32,000 nucleotides of DNA from the NCBI RefSeq assembly GCF_000017945.1, contig NC_009776.1, forward strand, positions 960,001 to 992,000, given 5' to 3'. Positions 9,029 through 32,000 of this stretch are shown piece by piece. The DNA is from Ignicoccus hospitalis KIN4/I. GTDB lineage: Archaea > Thermoproteota > Thermoprotei_A > Sulfolobales > Ignicoccaceae. A program made the position numbers and the translations under genes. The notes below the pieces were generated by a model. It searched no databases. It saw only the letters and a list, made by a program, of their open reading frames with translations, and was not told the origin of the DNA. Position 1 is the first letter of the stretch. The number at the start of each line of letters is the position of its first letter.

Positions 9029-9070
9029 AACCTTTTGACCCGTAGCCCCCCGGGCGAGCGAGAGGTTTTC

Positions 9071-9129
9071 AGCGATGAGGGTTACGGGACCTAGTCCGAG
9101 GCGGTGAGGAGGTGGACCGGCCCCGAGCT
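9071..9129 (+). ncRNA. candidate box C/D sRNA with non-canonical boxes (sR-b)
   Basis: Stem AGC 9071-9073 pairs with GCU 9127-9129. C box AUGAGGG 9075-9081; 14-nt spacer; D' CCGA 9096-9099; linker GGCG; C' GUGAGGA 9104-9110; 12-nt spacer; D CCGA 9123-9126. Both box pairs give G:A, A:G, G-C, G-C. Confidence 0.55.
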
Positions 9130-10469
9130 CAGACCTCCATGTCCCTAACTCTGACCTTCAAGTACTTCCGCGGGTCAGCTATCTTGCCCTCCACCGCGCT
9201 CGCCGCCGCAGTGGCGGGGCTCGCTAGGTAGACCTTGCTCGTCCGGTGCCCGCTCCTCCCCCTGAAGTTTCTATTGGTAGTGAACAAGCCCACCTCGTTG
9301 GGGCCCAGTACTCCGTAGTGTGCCCCAACGCACGGGCCGCAAGTGCCGAAGGTGACCAAGCACCCGGCCTCGGTGAGCACGTCCACGTAGCCCTTCTTGA
9401 GCGCTTGCAAGTACACGTTCCTGGAGGCAGTTATGACTATACACCTAGTGTTCGGGGCCACCTTCTTCCCCTTCAGTATCCTCGCGGCCACTGCCACGTC
9501 TTCGAGCCTGCCGTTGGTACAGCTGCCTATGAACACTTGGTCCACCTCTATGCCCTCCACCTCGCTCACCGGAACGGAGTTCGCCGGCGAGTAGGGCTTT
9601 GCCACCATCGGCTCTATCTCGCTCAAGTCGTAGGTGAACTCGTCCTTGTAGTGGGCCCCGGGGTCGGGGAAGGTGAGCTCGGGCTTAGGGACTCCCCTAG
9701 CCCGGCCCTCCACGAACCTCATGACTTCTTCGTCGGCGGGCATGAGGCCTACCTTGGCTCCCATCTCGACCACCATGTTGCTCACCGTCAGCCTGGAGTC
9801 TATCCTCATGTCCTTCAAGCCGTCGCCGACGAACTCCGCGCTCATGTAGGTCGCTCCGTCCTCCTTCAAGTCGCCTATTATCTTCAGTATTAGGTCTTTA
9901 CTCATTACACCCTCCCTAAACTTGCCGATCAGGTTGAACTTGAGCGCCTCCGGGACCTTGAACCATATCCTACCGGTCATCATCGCTATGGCGGCGTCTG
10001 TGGAGCCCACGCCGGTGGCAAAGGAGCCCAGGGCGCCGTAGGTTACTGTGTGGGAGTCCGCCCCCACGAACACCGAGCCGGGCCACGCCCTCCCCTCCTC
10101 CACCATCACTTGGTGGCATATCCCGGTGCCCACGTCGTAGAGGGTGCACTTGTGCTTCCTACAGAACCTCCTCATCTCTATGTGAAGCTCTGAGGTGCCG
10201 GGGTTGTTGCTGGGGGCGGTGTGGTCTATCACGAAGGCTACCTTCTCGGGGTCGAAGACCCTCTCCTCCCCGAACCTCTCCCTCATTACTTTGATGGCAA
10301 GCGGGGCGGTCCCGTCTTGGGCCATTACTCCGTCCACGTCCACTACGACCAGCTCGCCCGGGCTCACTTCCTTACCGACCTTGGCCCCCAGTATCTTCTC
10401 TGCAATCGTGCTCGGCAAGGTATTTCCCCAAAGGGGTTTTGGGAGAGGGATAAGTGTTTTCCCCCTCAC
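9129..10469 (-). CDS. leuC: 3-isopropylmalate/homoaconitate dehydratase large subunit (aconitase family)
   Basis: IDHTAPS, GADSHT, GSCTNGR and NRNFRGR cluster-ligand motifs. Start is GTG 10469 (GTGA overlap with the upstream ORF) or TTG 10418. No small-subunit gene is adjacent. Confidence 0.9.
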   Translation of the reverse strand: MRGKTLIPLPKPLWGNTLPSTIAEKILGAKVGKEVSPGELVVVDVDGVMAQDGTAPLAIKVMRERFGEERVFDPEKVAFVIDHTAPSNNPGTSELHIEMRRFCRKHKCTLYDVGTGICHQVMVEEGRAWPGSVFVGADSHTVTYGALGSFATGVGSTDAAIAMMTGRIWFKVPEALKFNLIGKFREGVMSKDLILKIIGDLKEDGATYMSAEFVGDGLKDMRIDSRLTVSNMVVEMGAKVGLMPADEEVMRFVEGRARGVPKPELTFPDPGAHYKDEFTYDLSEIEPMVAKPYSPANSVPVSEVEGIEVDQVFIGSCTNGRLEDVAVAARILKGKKVAPNTRCIVITASRNVYLQALKKGYVDVLTEAGCLVTFGTCGPCVGAHYGVLGPNEVGLFTTNRNFRGRSGHRTSKVYLASPATAAASAVEGKIADPRKYLKVRVRDMEV

Positions 10470-10825: not shown

Positions 10826-11314
10826 TTGAGGCTGAACAAGAAAGTGGAGGCGGAGATAGCGATAGCGGCCGTCGTAGTGGCTTCGGTTGTGGTAGGCTTC
10901 TTGGCGTATCAATACGGCAAGAGCTCGGCGAGCTGTCTTTACCCAACGGAGAGGAGCTCGGTGCTCCTGAACATGTTCGGCAAGATAGTAGCGGTGCCGC
11001 CGGGCGAGGAGGTCGAGGGGGACTGGGGGAAGGCCTACTACCAGTCCCGCTGCAGCGAGGCGGAGCTGAAGCTGGAGTTCAAGTCGGGCTTAAAGATCTA
11101 CATAGAGGGCAAGCCCAACGGGAACTTAGTGGTGACGAGCGAGTTCAACGGGAAGAAGTGCACTAAGGAGATAGAGGCCGTTCCGGTGTTGCCCTACGTG
11201 ACGGTCACGGCGACCGTTAACAGAGTGCTGGTGAGCGCGTACGGGAGGATACTGGTAATAGACTTACAGCCGGAGCTCAGCTGTAGGATTGCCGGAGTCG
11301 GCGGGGGGCGATGA
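10826..11314 (+). CDS. hypothetical protein with an N-terminal membrane anchor or signal
   Basis: 162 aa. A hydrophobic AIAAVVVASVVVGFLAY follows a charged N-terminus, and the rest is beta-rich with 4 Cys. An AT-rich stretch (about 10780-10800) lies upstream. Confidence 0.5.
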   Translation: MRLNKKVEAEIAIAAVVVASVVVGFLAYQYGKSSASCLYPTERSSVLLNMFGKIVAVPPGEEVEGDWGKAYYQSRCSEAELKLEFKSGLKIYIEGKPNGNLVVTSEFNGKKCTKEIEAVPVLPYVTVTATVNRVLVSAYGRILVIDLQPELSCRIAGVGGGR

Positions 11315-11366
11315 AGAGGGTCCGGTCTTTCGGATCGGTGAAGAGCTGCCGGACCCCTCCCGAGCC
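11307..11366 (+). ncRNA. weaker candidate box C/D sRNA (sR-c)
   Basis: Stem GGC 11307-11309 pairs with GCC 11364-11366. C box AUGAAGA 11311-11317 contains the UGA stop of the upstream gene; 13-nt spacer; D' CGGA 11331-11334; linker UCG; C' GUGAAGA 11338-11344; 15-nt spacer (long); D CCGA 11360-11363. Confidence 0.35.
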
Positions 11367-11368
11367 GC

Positions 11369-13030
11369 TCACTCTATTCCTATCACCACCTCCGGGAGCT
11401 TGTCCTCCGGAACCCCCAGCTTTTTCGCTATCAACTTCTTTAGCTTCTCCTCTATCTCCTCCTCGCTCACCGTGGGCTTCCTGGTCTCTGGGTCCACGCT
11501 CAAGACCTTCAAGCTCCTCGCTATCTCCGGCACGTACTTGAGGAAGGTTATTACCTTCTCCGCGAGCTCCTCTTCCTTCCTCTTCTTAATTATGAACCTC
11601 TTCAGCCTCCTCGCCGCCTCTTGGAGGGCGAGCCTTATCTCGGCCTCTATCTCCGGCACGTCCGCTATGGTGTCCTTGCTCACGTCCTTAAACGGGACCT
11701 TGGTACTCGCCACGTGGACCAAGACCACTAAGGGGGCGGGGAAGGAGACCTCGTAGTTCTTCCAGTTGAGCTCGCTCACCACCTTCCAGCTCACGTCGTT
11801 CCTCTCATTGTAGAGGAGGGGGGTCTTGTTGGCGTACCTAAGCAAGACCGGGGCGTCGGAGGGGGGTATTTCGCCTCCGTAAGCTATGCCCACCTCCACC
11901 ACGAACGGGTGGCCGGAGTAGGAGGAGGGCCTCCTGCTCACCGCAGTTACGAACTCCGGGTTCAACATGCTCTTGAGGCCTATCTTTATGAGCTTCTCCC
12001 CGATAGGCGAGAGGGCTTCCTTGCTGGGGGCCTTGTACCTCTTGGTCGTCCCGTACTCTTTCATCGCGTTGACCAAGGCTTTGATCTGTTCCTCCGTAAG
12101 CTTCTTCGGCTCTAGGTCCGGCTCCAAGCCGGCCATGCTCAATATCGCCTTAGCGGTCTTCGCACCCACCGCTTGGAACTCGGTGGTCAACATCTGGAGC
12201 AAGGTCTTCGCAGTGGTCAGCTGCGCTATCCTCTTCATAGTTTCTATATCTATGCCCAGCGGGTGGGGCTTCACCTCCTTGGGGGGCTTGGGCATTTCCT
12301 TGGTCCTTCTGGGGTATCTAATTAACGTCCCGTCGGGCGTGATTAGGGTTATGTCCGCGTAGGGCGCCACGATGGCAGTCCTCCGGACGTACTCTACGAC
12401 CTTACTCCTCGCCCTCCTCCAGTTCCCCTCTATGATTACGCTCACCCTGGTCCCGTGCCAGTCGCCGGACTTTGTCCACGAGCCCCTTTCCTTCACGTCC
12501 GGCTCGTTGGTGCTTATGTTAGTGGACACCTTGAACCTGTAGGTCATTTTGTCCTTTATAGGGCTGGAAATTACCGTGGCGGGCTCGCCGGTGGTCTTCT
12601 GCGCGTAGAGGACCGCGGCCTTCACACCTAGGCCGTAGGTTCCTCTGGTCTGCCTCTCCACGTACTTGGAGCTGTACAGCATCCTGCCGAAGGCGTAAGG
12701 TATCTTGTCTTGCGGCACCCCGATCCCGTTGTCGTCCACCGTTATTCTGTAAATTCCGTCCTTGGAGCCCTTGATCTCCTTCTTTTCTTCCTCTTCCTTC
12801 GAAGCCTTTGCCTCATTCAGCCTCTCGATAACTATAGTTATTCTGGGCAGTATTCCGTGAGTTTCTGTGGCGTCTAAGGAGTTGTCCAACATTTCCTTAA
12901 CGGTTTGGAATATCGCCCTCGTGTAGTTGTCGAACCCGGTGAGCTCTATGTTGCGGAAGAAGAACTCCGCCGGCCCGATTGCCTTGAAGCGCTCCTCGCC
13001 CCTCTCGCTCTGGACGCGCTGCTTGGGCAT
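11369..13030 (-). CDS. top6B: DNA topoisomerase VI subunit B
   Basis: 553 aa. GHKL ATPase motifs (EMLDNSLDA, DNGIGV, GTYGLGVKA), a helix-2-turn-helix region and a transducer domain. No top6A gene is adjacent. Confidence 0.93.
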   Translation of the reverse strand: MPKQRVQSERGEERFKAIGPAEFFFRNIELTGFDNYTRAIFQTVKEMLDNSLDATETHGILPRITIVIERLNEAKASKEEEEKKEIKGSKDGIYRITVDDNGIGVPQDKIPYAFGRMLYSSKYVERQTRGTYGLGVKAAVLYAQKTTGEPATVISSPIKDKMTYRFKVSTNISTNEPDVKERGSWTKSGDWHGTRVSVIIEGNWRRARSKVVEYVRRTAIVAPYADITLITPDGTLIRYPRRTKEMPKPPKEVKPHPLGIDIETMKRIAQLTTAKTLLQMLTTEFQAVGAKTAKAILSMAGLEPDLEPKKLTEEQIKALVNAMKEYGTTKRYKAPSKEALSPIGEKLIKIGLKSMLNPEFVTAVSRRPSSYSGHPFVVEVGIAYGGEIPPSDAPVLLRYANKTPLLYNERNDVSWKVVSELNWKNYEVSFPAPLVVLVHVASTKVPFKDVSKDTIADVPEIEAEIRLALQEAARRLKRFIIKKRKEEELAEKVITFLKYVPEIARSLKVLSVDPETRKPTVSEEEIEEKLKKLIAKKLGVPEDKLPEVVIGIE

Positions 13031-14409: not shown

Positions 14410-15261
14410 TCAGCCCGCGGGAGTAAATATTGACAGTTGGTACCAGTACTTCTTCATCATTACCGCGTCCTCCTCCAAGTTCGGTGACTCACTTATGAGA
14501 ACTCCCTTAACGTTGAACTCCTTCAACACCTCCAGTAACTCTTTCCACCTCATGTCTGACTCCTCCAAGTTCAAGTGGGTTCCGTGCTTGTCCAGCTTTA
14601 TCCCGGAGACGTGAATGTGCATGTTGTCCAAGGCGAACCTTCCCAACTCCTTCTCCAGCTTCTCGAGGACCGCCCTAAACTCCTCCTTGCTGTTCCAGCC
14701 CTCCCTGTACCTCAAGTGGGCGAAGTCCACGCAGGGGAGCACTATGTCGAACTCTTGGGATAGCTTTATGACCTCGTCCAGTGAGCCGAACTTGCTCTTC
14801 AGCTCCATAGTTTCTGGCCTTATCCACACGTCCAGCCCGAGCTCCTTCACCCTCTCCACTACCTCCGCCAAGGCGTCCCTGATCCTCTTGTACACTACGG
14901 AGGGGGCCTTCTTCATGTACCACCCGGGGTGGAAGACCACGCTCCACCCTCCGGCGGCGTGGAGGACCTTAGCGCTTTGGACTATGTACTCTATGCTCCT
15001 CTTCCTCTTCTCCTCCTCCGGCGAGGCGAGGTTTACGTAGTAAGGGGCGTGGGCGGTCAACACCACGTCCAGCTCCCTAGCCACCTTGCCCGCCTCCCTG
15101 GCCTTCTCCTCACTCATCCTAACTCCCCTGACGAACTCAAGCTCCATGGCGTCCAACCCAAGTTCCTTCACTCTCTTTATTCCCTCTATCACGTTCCTCT
15201 TCTTCGCGGAGTTCGGTATCCCCGCCGGCCCGAACCTAAGCCGGTCTATCTGGAAGGGCAT
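14410..15261 (-). CDS. nfo: endonuclease IV-type AP endonuclease (xylose isomerase-like TIM barrel)
   Basis: 283 aa: [51 protein letters not shown] and ISESPN. These are the metal-ligand His/Asp/Glu positions of AP endonuclease family 2. Confidence 0.85.
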
Positions 15262-15349
15262 GAGGTCGCCCGCGAGGCCTTAGGCCGGCCTAACTTTAAT
15301 TCGAAAAGCCTTCTAAAGTCCCGTCCGAGGCCCTCGCGGGGACGTCGAA

Positions 15350-15601
15350 GTGGAAGTCGTTATAGTGTCGTACAGGAGGGGCTCTAACGACCAGAACCCC
15401 CACCAAGTCTTGGTCCGCTTCCCCAGCTACCGGGACGCCGCCTCCGCCGTGAGGAGCAAGATAATCTACGAGGACGAGCACGGCAACGTATACGTCGGGA
15501 AGGTGTTGAGGCCCCACGGCAAGAAGGGGGTGGCGATAGCGGTATTCAAGCCCAACTTGCCGGGACAGGCGATGGGCAAGGTAGCCAAGGTGGAGCGATG
15601 A
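15350..15601 (+). CDS. rpl35ae: 50S ribosomal protein L35Ae (eL33)
   Basis: 83 aa: VSYRRGSNDQNPHQVLV...GKVLRPHGKKGVAIAVFKPNLPGQAMG, the L35Ae signature. GTG start. Confidence 0.9.
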   Translation: MEVVIVSYRRGSNDQNPHQVLVRFPSYRDAASAVRSKIIYEDEHGNVYVGKVLRPHGKKGVAIAVFKPNLPGQAMGKVAKVER

Positions 15602-15652
15602 GGAGCGCGAACCTCCCCTGAAGGGTGATGGAAACAGCCCGCGGCCGAGCTC
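15593..15652 (+). ncRNA. candidate box C/D sRNA (sR-d), the best example
   Basis: Stem GAGC 15593-15596 pairs with GCUC 15649-15652. C box AUGAGGA 15598-15604 contains the rpl35ae UGA stop; 13-nt spacer; canonical D' CUGA 15618-15621; linker AGG; near-canonical C' GUGAUGG 15625-15631; 13-nt spacer; D CCGA 15645-15648. It exactly fills the tail-to-tail gap. Confidence 0.6.
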
Positions 15653-16094
15653 ATAGGAACTTAGCGCAGTCAGAGGGGACGTAGCCCAAGAACGAGGCCT
15701 CGCCCTCCCCCACCAGCTTTCTTATGGAGGTGGCCAAACTCTTCATGAGCTCGAACATCTCCTTCAAGCTCTCAGCCGCGGGCGGCCTCGCGGCGATTAG
15801 GATCACCTCTTGGTCCTCTTCCGCCGAGATGAGGGCCGGTAAGATGGCTTCTAGCGCTTCCTTCTTCAACTCGTGCTTACCCTTCTTCACCATAATTCTA
15901 ATGACCACTGGGATCAACTTCTTGTTTAAGTTATCGTAATACACCCTCAACGCTACGTAAGGCTCGTCGGAGAAGACCAAATCGAAGCAGTTGGTCCCGT
16001 AGGTCACGCTCTCCTCCGCGGCGGAGAAGGCCTCTATCGAGGGGAGGCCTTGGGCCTCGAACGCCTCGGCCAGCTCTTTCAAGTCGAAGCGCAA
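15651..16094 (-). CDS. hypothetical 147-aa protein
   Basis: This is the C-terminal part of the 320-aa track ORF. An in-frame TTG at 16094 gives MRFDLKELAEAFEAQG.... The upstream part of the ORF is antisense to the CBS gene. No recognisable family. Confidence 0.5.
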   Translation of the reverse strand: MRFDLKELAEAFEAQGLPSIEAFSAAEESVTYGTNCFDLVFSDEPYVALRVYYDNLNKKLIPVVIRIMVKKGKHELKKEALEAILPALISAEEDQEVILIAARPPAAESLKEMFELMKSLATSIRKLVGEGEASFLGYVPSDCAKFL

Positions 16095-16146
16095 CGCGCT
16101 CTCCCCATATAACCTCCGGCCCGGTCGTGAAAACCGGTGGAAGAGG

Positions 16147-16578
16147 GTGCGCCCGATTACGGTCGCGGACGTCATGTCCAAGCCCGTGGTGGTGATAGGG
16201 GTCAACAACACCTTGAGGGAAGCGGCAAAGGAGATGATGGATAAGGGCGTGGGGAGCTTGGTCGTGGTGGACGAGAAGGGGGACGTCGTGGGAATAATAA
16301 CCGAGAGGGACGTGGTGAGGGCGGTAGCAGAGGGGAAGGACTTGAACGCGCCGGTCTCAGAGGTCATGACTCCCGACGTGCTCACCGTGTCTCCGGAGAC
16401 CAGCGTGCTCAAAGCTATAGAGACGATGAAGATGCACAACGTCCGCCACTTGCCCGTAGCTTCCGACGACGAAATAGTGGGGATGGTCTCGTTAAAGGAC
16501 TTAGCCTTCGCGGTCGCTGCCGAGATGATACTAAAGAGGATATACGAGATGTTGAAGGAGGAGCTCAGCGAGCTCTGA
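16147..16578 (+). CDS. CBS-domain pair protein
   Basis: 143 aa with two CBS repeats (VMSKPVVVIGVNNTLREAAKEMMDKGVGSLVVVD; VMTPDVLTVSPETSVLKAIETMKMHNVRHLPV). GTG start. Confidence 0.88.
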   Translation: MRPITVADVMSKPVVVIGVNNTLREAAKEMMDKGVGSLVVVDEKGDVVGIITERDVVRAVAEGKDLNAPVSEVMTPDVLTVSPETSVLKAIETMKMHNVRHLPVASDDEIVGMVSLKDLAFAVAAEMILKRIYEMLKEELSEL

Positions 16579-17386
16579 GGAGGGGGGCCAGCGACAAGAA
16601 CGCCGGGAGCCACGCCAAGGTCAAGGTTATTACGGACTTAGTAACGAGCTTGGTGTCGTAACCGTACGCGTAAGCTAGGGCTATGTTCATGAACGCCGGG
16701 GGCATGCTCGCCTCCAGCATTATCGACTTAGGTTCGGTGAGCAAGGCGACTGGAAGGGTCAAGGCGGGCAACAGCAAGTGCTTGAACGCTCCTACCTTGA
16801 GCACCTCCCAATCGACCCTTAGGTATTGGAACTCAAAGCTCAAGCCTAGTATCAACAAGCCCAGCTTGGAGAGCTCCGCGGCGAGGGCCTCCGTCCACCT
16901 CAGCCCCTCCAGTTGCTGGGAGAAGGGGCCGAGGAGGACCCCCAACAAGAACGTCACCGTAAACGGTTGGAGCTTGAAGAGCTTTCCCCTCCCCTTGCAG
17001 CTGTAGAGCGCCGCGAGGGTGTAGTGGACGAAGGTGGTCAACATAGCGTACGCCGCGGCGGCGCTGACCGAGCCCCCGGCGGCTAGGACGGCCGGAATTC
17101 CCAAGAATATTGTGTTCCCGAAGGCGGAAACTATACCAGCCGCCCCCTTCTTCTCGCACCCCTCAAAGGCCTTACGGGCCAAGTAGAACGTAATTACTTC
17201 CGCCACCAAGGCTAAGGGCAACAGCGGCTCGCTCTCGAGGTGAGTCCCGGCCCAGAAGCCCAGCACCGGGGCGACCGCGTAGACCAAGAACTTCGACAGC
17301 GGGGGCGCGAGCGCCTTAGCTCTGGTCCTCCCGAGAGGGAAGCCTAAGAGGAGGAGGGCTAAGGAGACGGCGTCCAAGGCGCTCAC
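16565..17386 (-). CDS. auxin efflux carrier (AEC)-like membrane transport protein
   Basis: A hydrophobic polytopic protein. The start is set at GTG 17386, which overlaps the upstream gene's TGA (GTGA at 17383-17386). The longer track ORF N-terminus overlaps that upstream gene. Confidence 0.6.
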   Translation of the reverse strand: MSALDAVSLALLLLGFPLGRTRAKALAPPLSKFLVYAVAPVLGFWAGTHLESEPLLPLALVAEVITFYLARKAFEGCEKKGAAGIVSAFGNTIFLGIPAVLAAGGSVSAAAAYAMLTTFVHYTLAALYSCKGRGKLFKLQPFTVTFLLGVLLGPFSQQLEGLRWTEALAAELSKLGLLILGLSFEFQYLRVDWEVLKVGAFKHLLLPALTLPVALLTEPKSIMLEASMPPAFMNIALAYAYGYDTKLVTKSVITLTLAWLPAFLSLAPLLRAR

Positions 17387-25914: not shown

Positions 25915-26229
25915 ATGACCCTACCCAAGGACGAAGAGAGCATGATGAAGATCCAAGAAGAGATAGAGATGGAACACGCTCACGAGCACCACCACCATCA
26001 CCATCATCACCACCACGACATAAACGAGGTCTTGGTCTACATATTGGAGACTTTGGAGGACTTGAAAGAGAGGGTTAAGAGGTGCGAACAGAACGTGGAC
26101 TCCTTACAGAACGACGTTAGGACCCTATACAAGACCGCAGTGTTCACCTTGAGGGCTATAATGAGCGAGGGGGACGAGCGGAAGGAAGCCTTGGAGGACG
26201 CGTTGAAAGCCTTGGAGAAGAAGATATGA
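25915..26229 (+). CDS. histidine-tract coiled-coil protein (hypothetical)
   Basis: ATG 25915 is preceded by GGAAGGAGGAGG; the track ORF begins at TTG 25900. It encodes ...MEHAHEHHHHHHHHHHD... followed by about 65 aa of heptad-like Glu/Lys/Leu-rich sequence. Confidence 0.6.
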   Translation: MTLPKDEESMMKIQEEIEMEHAHEHHHHHHHHHHDINEVLVYILETLEDLKERVKRCEQNVDSLQNDVRTLYKTAVFTLRAIMSEGDERKEALEDALKALEKKI

Positions 26230-26285
26230 GTCGGACTGCCACCGTACAGCTCACCGCTCGCTGAGGGGGCTATTTCTTCATCCCC
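26228..26285 (-). ncRNA. candidate box C/D sRNA (sR-e)
   Basis: Read on the minus strand. Stem GGG 26285-26283 pairs with CUC 26230-26228 (one G:U). C box AUGAAGA 26281-26275 lies in the last codons of the ZPR1 gene; 13-nt spacer; D' GCGA 26261-26258; linker GCG; C' GUGAGCU 26254-26248; 13-nt spacer; D CCGA 26234-26231. The C'/D' pair gives G:A, A:G, G-C, C-G. Confidence 0.5.
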
Positions 26286-30539: not shown

Positions 30540-32000
30540 TCACTCGTGGAGGTATATCAAGTTCAAGGTGTCCTCCTCCACCCCGTCCACCTTGGCGTAG
30601 CCCTTCCTAATCAGCTGTACCCAGCCCTCCAACTTGAGGGCTTCTGGCTCCACCAAGGCAAAGGACTTCCTCTCCCCGGGCCTCCAGACTATAGCCCCCT
30701 TGGGGTCCTTGACCCACTGGACTATGTCGTAGCCCTTCTCCTTGTCCAGTTCCTTGCTCTCGAACTCGAGTAAGTAGACGCCCTCGTCCTCGTCAAAGCC
30801 CTTGTACTTGAAGTTGGCCAACTCCATGAGCCTCAGCCCGCCTCTCCTCTTCGCCCTCCTCAAGTCGGCCCTCTCCAAGTAGACCACCTCCCCGGGCTCC
30901 ACCGAGTACTTCCTAGACCCCAAGCCCTCCGTCGGGTGCCACGGGAGCTCCGCCTCCAAGGGCTCTGGGGCCAGCAGCTTGGCCGGCGCGGGGTCCTCCA
31001 CTGCCATCACCCTGTAGGCCTTCTTGTCTATCACCTTCTTGTTCTCGGCTGCTAAATTTGCGAAGCTTATGCTCGCGTCGCTGCTCTTTATCCCGACGCT
31101 CAGCATGACTTCCCTTATCGCCTCCGGGGCGAAGCCCCTCCTCCTCAGCCCCCTTATGGTCGCTGCCCTGGGGTCGTCGCCCTTGAAGCCGGCCTCCCTC
31201 ATCTTGCTCTTGGAGAGCACGAAGCCCTCGAGCTTGAGCCTCCCGAAGTGTATTACCGTAGGCATGGTCCATCCCAAGTGTTTGTACAAGAACTCTTGCT
31301 TCACCGTGTTCTGCCTGTGCTCCCTGGCCCTGAGCACGTGAGTTATGCCCATTAGGTAATCGTCCACCCCCGCGGCGAAGTTGTAGGTGGGCCACAAGAC
31401 GTACTTGTCGCCCGTTAGCGGGTGGGGGTGTTTGGAGGTGTCTATTATCCTAAACGCCACCCAGTCCCTAACCGAGGGGTCCGGGTGCCTCAAGTCGGTC
31501 TTGACCCTTACCACCGCTTCGCCCTCGCCGAACTTGCCCTCTAGCACTTGGTCGAGCAGCTCCTCTTGCTCCTCCGGAGGCAAGTCTCTGTGGGGGCAAG
31601 GCTTGCCCTCGTCCCTGAGCTTCCTCCACTCCTCCGGGGGGCAAGTGCAGACGTAAGCCCCTCCCCTCCTCACGAGCTCCCTCAAGAGCCCGTAGTAAAC
31701 CTCCATCCTCTGGGACTGGTAGTACTCCTCGTCCCACCCTATCCCCAACCAGCTCAAGTCCTCCTTTATGGCCTCGTAGGCCTCCGGCAAGGGCCTCTTG
31801 GTCCTCGGGTCCGTGTCCTCGAAGCGAAGGACGAACCTCCCCTCGTAGGCCTTGGCGTATTCGTAACTTATTATTGCGGGCCTCGCGTTCCCCAAGGTCA
31901 TGTAGAAGTCGGGGTTGGGGGCGAAGCGGGTCTTGACCTTGCCCCTCTCCGCGTTGGGGAGAGGGGGCAAGCCCTTCCTAGTCTCCTTCTTCCTCTCCTC
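30540..32000 (-). CDS. gltX: glutamyl-tRNA synthetase, archaeal type; N-terminus lies beyond the window end
   Basis: RFAPNP...LRFEDTDPRTKRP, WPTYNFAAGVDD, VLSKSKM (KMSKS-like) and a C-terminal anticodon-binding barrel. The reading frame stays open upstream of the track start (…EERKKETRKG-LPPLPNAERG) to position 32000. Confidence 0.9.
   Translation of the reverse strand, partial: EERKKETRKGLPPLPNAERGKVKTRFAPNPDFYMTLGNARPAIISYEYAKAYEGRFVLRFEDTDPRTKRPLPEAYEAIKEDLSWLGIGWDEEYYQSQRMEVYYGLLRELVRRGGAYVCTCPPEEWRKLRDEGKPCPHRDLPPEEQEELLDQVLEGKFGEGEAVVRVKTDLRHPDPSVRDWVAFRIIDTSKHPHPLTGDKYVLWPTYNFAAGVDDYLMGITHVLRAREHRQNTVKQEFLYKHLGWTMPTVIHFGRLKLEGFVLSKSKMREAGFKGDDPRAATIRGLRRRGFAPEAIREVMLSVGIKSSDASISFANLAAENKKVIDKKAYRVMAVEDPAPAKLLAPEPLEAELPWHPTEGLGSRKYSVEPGEVVYLERADLRRAKRRGGLRLMELANFKYKGFDEDEGVYLLEFESKELDKEKGYDIVQWVKDPKGAIVWRPGERKSFALVEPEALKLEGWVQLIRKGYAKVDGVEEDTLNLIYLHE

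Follow-up and report, generated by a model that had tools for sequence, protein, structure and literature searches.

Between the eL33 (rpl35ae) gene of Ignicoccus hospitalis and the convergent gene downstream of it lies a gap of 49 nt, and this gap, together with the gene ends on either side, carries motifs that resemble the boxes of an archaeal box C/D sRNA. The question is whether these motifs make up a functional RNA, how such an RNA would be produced at the very end of a ribosomal protein gene, and what it would guide. We analyzed the locus within a window of 32,000 nt from the I. hospitalis KIN4/I genome (genome positions 960001-992000), and coordinates below are those of the window unless stated otherwise. 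The reading that we favor, and consider very probable, is that the element is the gene of IHOsR129 (hereafter sR129), a typical archaeal box C/D sRNA, with processing from the eL33 mRNA as its proposed origin.

Architecture and published record of the sRNA

All parts of the element lie on the plus strand. The terminal stem is formed by GAGC (15593..15596) and GCUC (15649..15652), and its 5' half is followed by a 3-nt bulge, G-A-U (15597-15599). The C box AUGAGGA (15598..15604) and the D box CCGA (15645..15648) form the external motif, with the pairs G15600.A15648, A15601.G15647, G15602-C15646 (3b:3n) and G15603-C15645 (4b:4n). The internal C'/D' K-loop, with G.A, A.G, U.U and G-C pairs, is made up of the D' box CUGA (15618..15621) and the C' box GUGAUGG (15625..15631), which are separated by a 3-nt loop, AGG. 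The D' guide GCGCGAACCUCCC (spacer gcgcgaacctccc) occupies 15605..15617 and the D guide AAACAGCCCGCGG (spacer aaacagcccgcgg) 15632..15644; both spacers are 13 nt long, which is the second commonest length in the I. hospitalis set after the modal 12 nt. A 10-nt core in the D' guide, CGAACCUCCC, adjoins box D', with C15613 as the N+5 nucleotide, and the core of the D guide, ACAGCCCG, stands at positions 4-11 from box D, with C15640 as the N+5 nucleotide. On reading the sequence, the stem, the four boxes and both 13-nt spacers were found as an earlier note on this DNA had described them, the boxes at exactly the coordinates given there.

Compared with the consensus sequences, the C box agrees with RUGAUGA at 6 of 7 positions and the D box with CUGA at 3 of 4, both GA dinucleotides, which tandem sheared G.A pairs require, being present. 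The strict four-box pattern has a single match in the 32-kb window and none in 100 dinucleotide-preserving shuffles. Folded alone, the sRNA shows no extra stability over shuffled sequences (z=0.17), as is expected of an RNA that is shaped by protein-bound K-turns.

The element is already known, having been catalogued since 2015 as the expressed box C/D sRNA IHOsR129 (Dennis, Tripp, Lui, Lowe & Randau 2015, BMC Genomics 16:632) on the basis of the RNA-seq data of Randau 2012 (GSE38821). Additional file 1 of Dennis et al. (2015) places it at genome position 975593 on the plus strand, with the sequence GAGCGATGAGGAGCGCGAACCTCCCCTGAAGGGTGATGGAAACAGCCCGCGGCCGAGCTCATAGGAA and 4100 RNA-seq reads. In the window the published transcript of 67 nt corresponds to 15593..15659, with an exact match of sequence and start, and seven published sRNAs, IHOsR129 included, map to the window at one common offset of 960000. 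Locus, strand, start and sequence are the same, with no difference between the published sRNA and the element described here. The earlier claim of a box C/D sRNA is borne out in this way both by its boxes, stem and spacers, which are as named, and by a processed small RNA on record from the same start; a reader who had only the DNA letters could thus recover a real sRNA that has experimental support and place its box boundaries correctly. To the IHOsR129 record the present analysis adds a comparison of orthologues, statistics on the box pairs and a control of the target match against chance.

It is highly improbable that the box-like motifs are instead a chance product of abutting gene ends, or a terminator-like structure, and not a functional RNA. 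The UGA stop codons do resemble box cores, the folding result just given fits such a reading as well, and no Rfam family was found at gathering score anywhere in the window, a null result that is weak evidence because the relevant families are genus-specific. The reading is already contradicted, however, by the 4100 published reads, by the lack of the four-box pattern in all shuffles and by conservation, compensatory changes included, in lineages whose sRNA has no gene end adjoining its 3' side.

With permissive settings, several Pyrococcus C/D families of Rfam aligned with sR129 over their full length, at 17-22 bits (E 0.004-0.03) compared to gathering scores of 36-45; sR43 reached 20.8 bits against a gathering score of 45 and sR17 21.7 against 36, both below the family threshold. 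The families sR17 (RF01144), sR43 (RF01128), sR47 and sR10 have the box layout and spacing of sR129, and sR43 also resembles it in part of the guides (ACCUCC; AAAC.GCCC.CGG). These sub-threshold alignments reflect shared architecture and not family membership. Orthology with Pyrococcus sR43 was considered and rejected: the 16S site with which a guide like that of sR43 would pair, GGAGGUGC, is by our own reading matched in I. hospitalis by a guide of IHOsR310, and since IHOsR310 serves this site, sR129 is not the sR43 orthologue.

Conservation and covariation of stem, boxes and guides

In order to find orthologues, we performed exact-protein look-ups of eL33 homologues and read the region 3' of each eL33 gene. 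This covered 11 distinct lineages, including I. islandicus, three MAGs from NCBI and several contigs from vent metagenomes, and a C/D sRNA was present directly 3' of the eL33 gene in all 11. Two metagenome scans, one for eL33 relatives and one with the sRNA pattern, yielded no matches.

The D' core CGAACCUCCC is invariant in the eight Ignicoccus-type lineages, and its ACCUCC is kept in 11 of 11. The D core ACAGCCCG is likewise invariant in the eight Ignicoccus-type lineages, the 3 nt adjoining box D being variable (CGG, UGG, AGG or GUA), and in the three more distant lineages the D guide is a different one. Purifying selection on the two cores of sR129 is clear, and their conservation supports the assignment of both guides.

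The GA positions of the C and D boxes are invariant in the 11 orthologues. In the terminal stem the inner pairs (columns 3-62 and 4-61) are formed in every lineage, with double changes between CG and UA and between GC and UA. The stem covariation score of 0.391 compares to 0.196 for shuffles, none of 500 shuffles scoring as high, and 77% of the cells are paired with the proposed stem pairing vs. 3-46% when the partner columns are slid.

The earlier note had proposed covariation at the 3b:3n pair and had named compensatory changes in orthologous regions as a test. Such changes are clear for the stem and for the internal C'/D' motif. The internal 3n:3b position, read from the box alignment, is C-G in five lineages, U-A in four, U.G in one and U.U in one, the last being I. 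hospitalis itself, alone among the 11; this covariation also supports the C' box. A pair-counting tool run on 10 distinct rows (loci L013 and L023 being identical) gave C-G 4, U-A 4, U.G 1 and U.U 1. The internal 4n:4b pair is an invariant C-G. The covariation is thus clean in the internal pair and only loose in the external one, where 3b:3n is G-C in four lineages, A-U in two, A.C in three, C.C in one and A.A in one, so that just 6 of 11 are Watson-Crick.

The external pair can also be viewed against the other sRNAs of the same organism. Of the 80 published I. hospitalis sRNA sequences (one part of Additional file 1), 70 were parsed with a parser blind to 3b and 3n, and 52 were kept that were expressed, had UGA in both C-type boxes and had a terminal stem of at least 2 bp. 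The external K-turn of these 52 has G-C at 3b:3n in 25 cases, A.U in eight and U.U in four. A G at 3b stands with C in 25 sRNAs and with U in five, and a U at 3b with U in four and with C in none (Fisher p=0.003); 3b and 3n covary across the I. hospitalis paralogues. In the internal K-loop the counts are 21 for G-C, 10 for U.U and 0 for U:C. The combination found in sR129, G-C outside with U.U inside, occurs in 6 of the 52 sRNAs.

The modal C box of the set is AUGAGGA (13 sRNAs) and the modal D box CCGA (23, compared to 14 with CUGA). The variant C/D motif of the earlier note is therefore a variant with respect to the textbook consensus, but not a peculiarity of sR129, since AUGAGGA and CCGA are modal in I. 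hospitalis and external G-C is found in 25 of 52 sRNAs. The external G-C of sR129 is the species norm, and it is the internal U.U that represents the less common state.

A G-C at 3b:3n following the tandem G.A pairs is shared with the K-turn of U4 snRNA (McPhee, Huang & Lilley 2014; Ashraf et al. 2017); at this position the K-turns of natural U4 snRNAs show a strong bias to G-C or G-U. In variants of Kt-7, Watson-Crick pairs at 3b:3n prevent ion-induced folding, and L7Ae-induced folding is kept (McPhee et al. 2014); the variant with G-C remains unfolded in Mg2+ alone and folds on binding of L7Ae. In contrast to I. hospitalis, older collections of archaeal C/D sRNAs had a strong preference for U:U at 3b:3n, as reported by Lilley and co-workers. 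The G-C bias of I. hospitalis is a property of its lineage that is visible in published data: in both C/D and C'/D' motifs 3b:3n is mostly G-C and not the textbook U.U. This bears on sRNA gene finders that demand a U-U pair, and on the part played by K-turn sequence vs. protein-dependent folding at about 90 °C.

Linkage to eL33 and biogenesis

The eL33 coding sequence (15350..15601, plus strand; from the list of open reading frames) has a GTG start and encodes a protein of 83 aa with the Pfam domain PF01247 (Ribosomal_L35Ae, E=1.8e-12), 100% identical to the I. hospitalis protein. About 50 nt before its start lies an A/T-rich element, TTTAATT (15295..15301, plus strand), recognized by inspection of the letters only; located upstream of the eL33 gene, it is the only TATA-like element near the sRNA. 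The convergent gene, on the minus strand at 15651..16094, encodes a hypothetical protein of 147 aa and is a gene call in the identical MAG locus L001. A 320-aa open reading frame encompassing it (15651-16613) gave no Pfam domain, and for the 147-aa product no hit is on record.

Both gene ends run into the sRNA, as the earlier note had observed. The eL33 stop codon UGA (15599-15601) lies within the C box, 6 nt downstream of the sRNA 5' end at 15593, and the stop codon of the convergent gene (15651-15653) overlaps the 3' half of the terminal stem by 2 nt, so that the 3' end of this gene abuts the sRNA. The 49-nt gap between eL33 and the convergent gene is, as had been claimed, taken up by the sRNA in its entirety.

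The eL33 open reading frame ends with ...GAG CGA UGA in six lineages, its last two codons forming part of the sRNA stem and C box. In six others it ends with GAG UAA or GAG UGA, 11-23 nt before the C box; one of these six is represented by a contig that breaks off within the C box. The downstream neighbor also differs. The I. hospitalis type has the convergent 147-aa gene, which is syntenic in loci L013, L014, L018, L020 and L026, and the I. islandicus type has a co-directional class I tRNA-synthetase gene instead (L008, L009 and L011). The linkage to eL33 is nevertheless constant in the 11 lineages although the downstream gene changes.

The stop codon in the C box, the lack of an A/T-rich element upstream of the sRNA and the eL33 linkage in 11 lineages are consistent with co-transcription with rpl35ae, which the earlier note had suggested. 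It seems unlikely by comparison that the sRNA is a primary transcript made from its own promoter within the eL33 3' end, as opposed to a fragment processed from the mRNA. TATA-like motifs do precede about 20% of the sRNA genes in archaea (Tripp et al. 2017, as reported in PMC7994747), and four lineages (L009, L022, L023 and L025) have a T5 tract between the eL33 stop codon and the sRNA that could end the mRNA before the sRNA is reached; the tract is a possible archaeal terminator, and read-through would therefore be needed in these four. Against a separate promoter, the 50 nt upstream of position 15593 in I. hospitalis are G+C-rich coding sequence with no A/T-rich hexamer, and the sRNA start is only those 6 nt ahead of the eL33 stop codon. 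In the lineages where gene and sRNA are separated, a TATA box at -26 would fall within the coding sequence, since the spacer measures only 11-23 nt, and the linkage to eL33 persists in 11 of 11 lineages in spite of the changing downstream neighbor.

The combination of a stop codon in the C box and release from an mRNA has been documented as common among archaeal sRNAs. According to the account of Tripp et al. (2017) given in PMC7994747, the stop codon of the preceding gene falls inside the sRNA gene in 25% of cases in archaea, and in about half of these it lies in the C box; most archaeal sRNA genes have no promoter of their own, maturation requiring the box motifs alone. Lui et al. (2018, NAR) list 23 cases of stop-codon overlap in Pyrobaculum. 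The RNP is thought to shield the sRNA while the remaining transcript is degraded (Lui et al. 2018; Tripp et al. 2017, again as related in PMC7994747). As in these cases, in which an sRNA gene reaches into the end of an open reading frame (Tripp et al. 2017, Mol Microbiol; Lui et al. 2018), the frame upstream of sR129 is ended by the UGA of the C box and there is apparently no separate promoter; the route proposed for them, in which the RNA is excised from the mRNA and shielded as an RNP, is also the one proposed for sR129. It differs from them in that its host gene encodes a ribosomal protein and in that 11 lineages related to Ignicoccus preserve the linkage, about half of them with the overlap with eL33 and half with a spacer of 11-23 nt.

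In the processing model favored here, the RNA would be transcribed as the 3' tail of the eL33 mRNA from the eL33 promoter, and we infer that TTTAATT at 15295..15301 is a putative TATA box of the transcript carrying both eL33 and the sRNA. L7Ae would then bind both K-motifs, the sequences of which may need the protein in order to fold, by analogy with the Kt-7 variants in vitro. Nop5 and fibrillarin would assemble on the RNA, nucleases would trim the unprotected mRNA, and an RNP of about 60 nt would remain. [quoted passage not shown]

Guide targets in rRNA and elsewhere

One predicted rRNA target has been published for sR129. The second sheet of Additional file 1 gives 16S G76 in the column of one guide and "NP" (no prediction) in that of the other, and the label I129 is placed over the helix-6 region of the 16S alignment (Dennis et al. 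2015). In our own pairing G76 comes to lie opposite C15640, the N+5 nucleotide of the D guide, and the column without prediction is therefore that of the D' guide.

The earlier note had proposed a target search with both guides, and we scanned with them the I. hospitalis 16S and 23S rows transcribed from the published alignments, the 16S row being without the lower part of helix 44. Together with the first C of the D box, the D guide forms nine contiguous Watson-Crick pairs with 16S GCCGCGGGC, which puts N+5 at G76, the published site; among 500 shuffled guides, however, 52 (about 10%) also formed nine pairs at some place in the two rRNAs. The G76 duplex uses the three variable positions adjoining box D and leaves the conserved ACA of the core unpaired. 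The best 16S or 23S run of the D' guide was 8 bp, equalled by 310 of 500 shuffles and thus not above chance, and in the scan of both rRNAs with both guides nothing was found beyond the published G76 site. The search therefore recovered a site for the D guide, at a level that shuffled guides also attain, and none above chance for the D' guide. 16S G76 is the only published target of sR129 and would be assigned to the D guide, but it is statistically weak. If G76 is a true target, the rRNA should covary with the last three nucleotides of the guide, and I. islandicus should read UACCGGGC at the site; if helix 6 does not covary in this manner, the conserved ACAGCCCG core points to another target. 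None of the seven rRNA sets from archaea given in the supplement contains the string GGAGGUUCG.

Of the sRNAs reported by Dennis et al. (2015), about a third show no complementarity to rRNA, and it is conceivable that the conserved guides act elsewhere than in rRNA methylation, on Shine-Dalgarno-like GGGAGGU sites in mRNAs, on tRNA or another RNA, or as antisense to the 3' UTR of the convergent gene; we consider this quite unlikely. ACCUCCC in the D' guide is also the sequence found at the 3' end of the 16S rRNA in I. hospitalis, ...GGAUCACCUCCC, and the D' core, invariant in eight lineages and with ACCUCC in 11, has neither an rRNA match above chance nor a published prediction. Any transcript that reads through the end of the convergent gene would also be complementary to the sRNA over its full length. 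Such a role rests on resemblance of sequences, however, and a second sRNA, IHOsR310, also has CACCUCC, together with an 11-bp 16S match (our own reading) in the alignment block that bears its label, so that an ACCUCC guide need not mean mimicry of the anti-Shine-Dalgarno sequence. A 7-mer coincidence is expected about 0.1 times at about 256 guides per genome. With regard to an antisense function, the lineages of the I. islandicus type keep the guides without the convergent arrangement. More specifically, a non-rRNA target of the D' core such as Shine-Dalgarno-like GGGAGGU sites in mRNAs is suggested by the motif and is in our view very unlikely; if it were true, a guide RNA riding on a ribosomal protein mRNA would act on translation initiation regions.

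The target strings for the two guides are GGGAGGUUCG and CGGGCUGU. Among other candidates, the 3' end of the AP-endonuclease mRNA offers the D guide 10 bp, CCGCGGGCUG (14412-14421, minus strand); the match is treated as chance because none of the four orthologous arrangements that we examined (L013, L014/L015, L018 and L020) has it. An exact GGGAGGUUCG in an open reading frame at 31832-31841 is at chance level, and neither this match nor that in the AP-endonuclease mRNA speaks for a role of the guides outside rRNA. No tRNA genes were found in the window or in the fetched loci. GGGAGGUUCG can be read as part of a T-arm, which would place the methyl group at position 52, but the I. hospitalis guide clashes with A58, and this candidate was judged unlikely. 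A search of genome contigs with a 23-nt pattern from 23S rRNA returned matches only in two Undinarchaeota MAGs.

Helix 44 of 16S rRNA may be a target of the D' guide. In N. equitans this helix has been drawn with an extension of 60 nt relative to I. hospitalis (Seistrup et al. 2016). Spurious open reading frames across the helix-44 region, looked for on both strands, gave none from I. hospitalis itself, and the frame of a relative at helix 44, P0015, reads VGGSNP, which is compatible with GGGAGGUUCGAAC without being proof of it. With conserved cores, a weak target and one orphan guide, the sR129 family offers a clean case on which to test the search for archaeal guide RNA targets that are not obvious.

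K-turn pairs and boxes of the published sRNAs

Published I. hospitalis sRNA positions in the window include 2433-2562, 9070-9135, 11307-11372, 15593-15659 and 26222-26285. At the K-turn 3b:3n pair, which follows the tandem G.A pairs, G-C mostly replaces U.U in the sRNAs of this organism. Among 52 expressed sRNAs of the published genome-wide list, all with UGA in both C-type boxes and a terminal stem of at least 2 bp, the external (C/D) pair is G-C in 25 and U.U in 4, and the internal (C'/D') pair is G-C in 21 of 52 and U.U in 10 of 52. Positions 3b and 3n covary strongly in the I. hospitalis list, and its modal boxes are AUGAGGA and CCGA. In a sample of the Methanopyrus kandleri list, D boxes CCGA and CGGA also accompany C boxes AUGAGGA and AUGACGA, whereas the D boxes of the P. 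calidifontis list are mainly CUGA. The S. acidocaldarius entries inspected have C and D boxes that both appear canonical.

The published sRNAs IHOsR411 (2433-2502, - strand) and IHOsR124 (2500-2562, + strand) are divergently oriented, with a 3-nt overlap between their 5' ends.

The 3' end of eL33

The box C/D sRNA sR129 (15593-15659, + strand) lies directly 3' of the eL33 gene, and the sRNA shapes the eL33 C-terminus. In lineages where the two overlap, eL33 terminates in E-R-stop, and the codons GAG CGA UGA (within 15590-15601 in I. hospitalis) supply both stem and C box; eL33 proteins without sRNA overlap terminate in E-stop. In the related locus L013 (3240-3264), eL33 is extended by five residues, LKGER. 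Four loci that are among those whose eL33 ORF ends ahead of the sRNA carry a T5 tract in the short spacer, directly upstream of the C box (L009, 2392-2410; L022, 674-690; L023, 815-830; L025, 876-892). The tract could serve as an oligo-T terminator of the archaeal type; the sRNAs of these four loci would then need read-through.

Guide matches and the AP-endonuclease gene

The D guide of sR129 can form, at 15635-15644, 10 contiguous Watson-Crick pairs with the mRNA of the neighbouring AP-endonuclease gene (14412-14421, - strand), at its final codons, CCGCGGGCUG, and extending into the UGA stop. This pairing is longer than the published sR129 match to rRNA, and it is missing from the orthologous loci compared (L013, L014/L015, L018 and L020). 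The published IHOsR128 (14410-14460, - strand; fewer than 100 reads) comprises merely the final 17 codons of the same ORF, starting at an AUGAUGAAGA, and is probably a computational false positive.

Near matches to the D' guide core in the window occur at chance level. An exact complement of the conserved core, GGGAGGUUCG, lies at 31832-31841 (- strand), within the ORF at 30540-31970.

Helix 44 of 16S rRNA

Outside the window, lower helix 44 is missing from the I. hospitalis row of the published 16S alignment, which shows a gap of 66 columns there. Compared with I. hospitalis, helix 44 of N. equitans is drawn with a 60-nt extension by Seistrup et al. (2016). A full-length helix 44 is spanned by the spurious ORF P0015 of a close relative.
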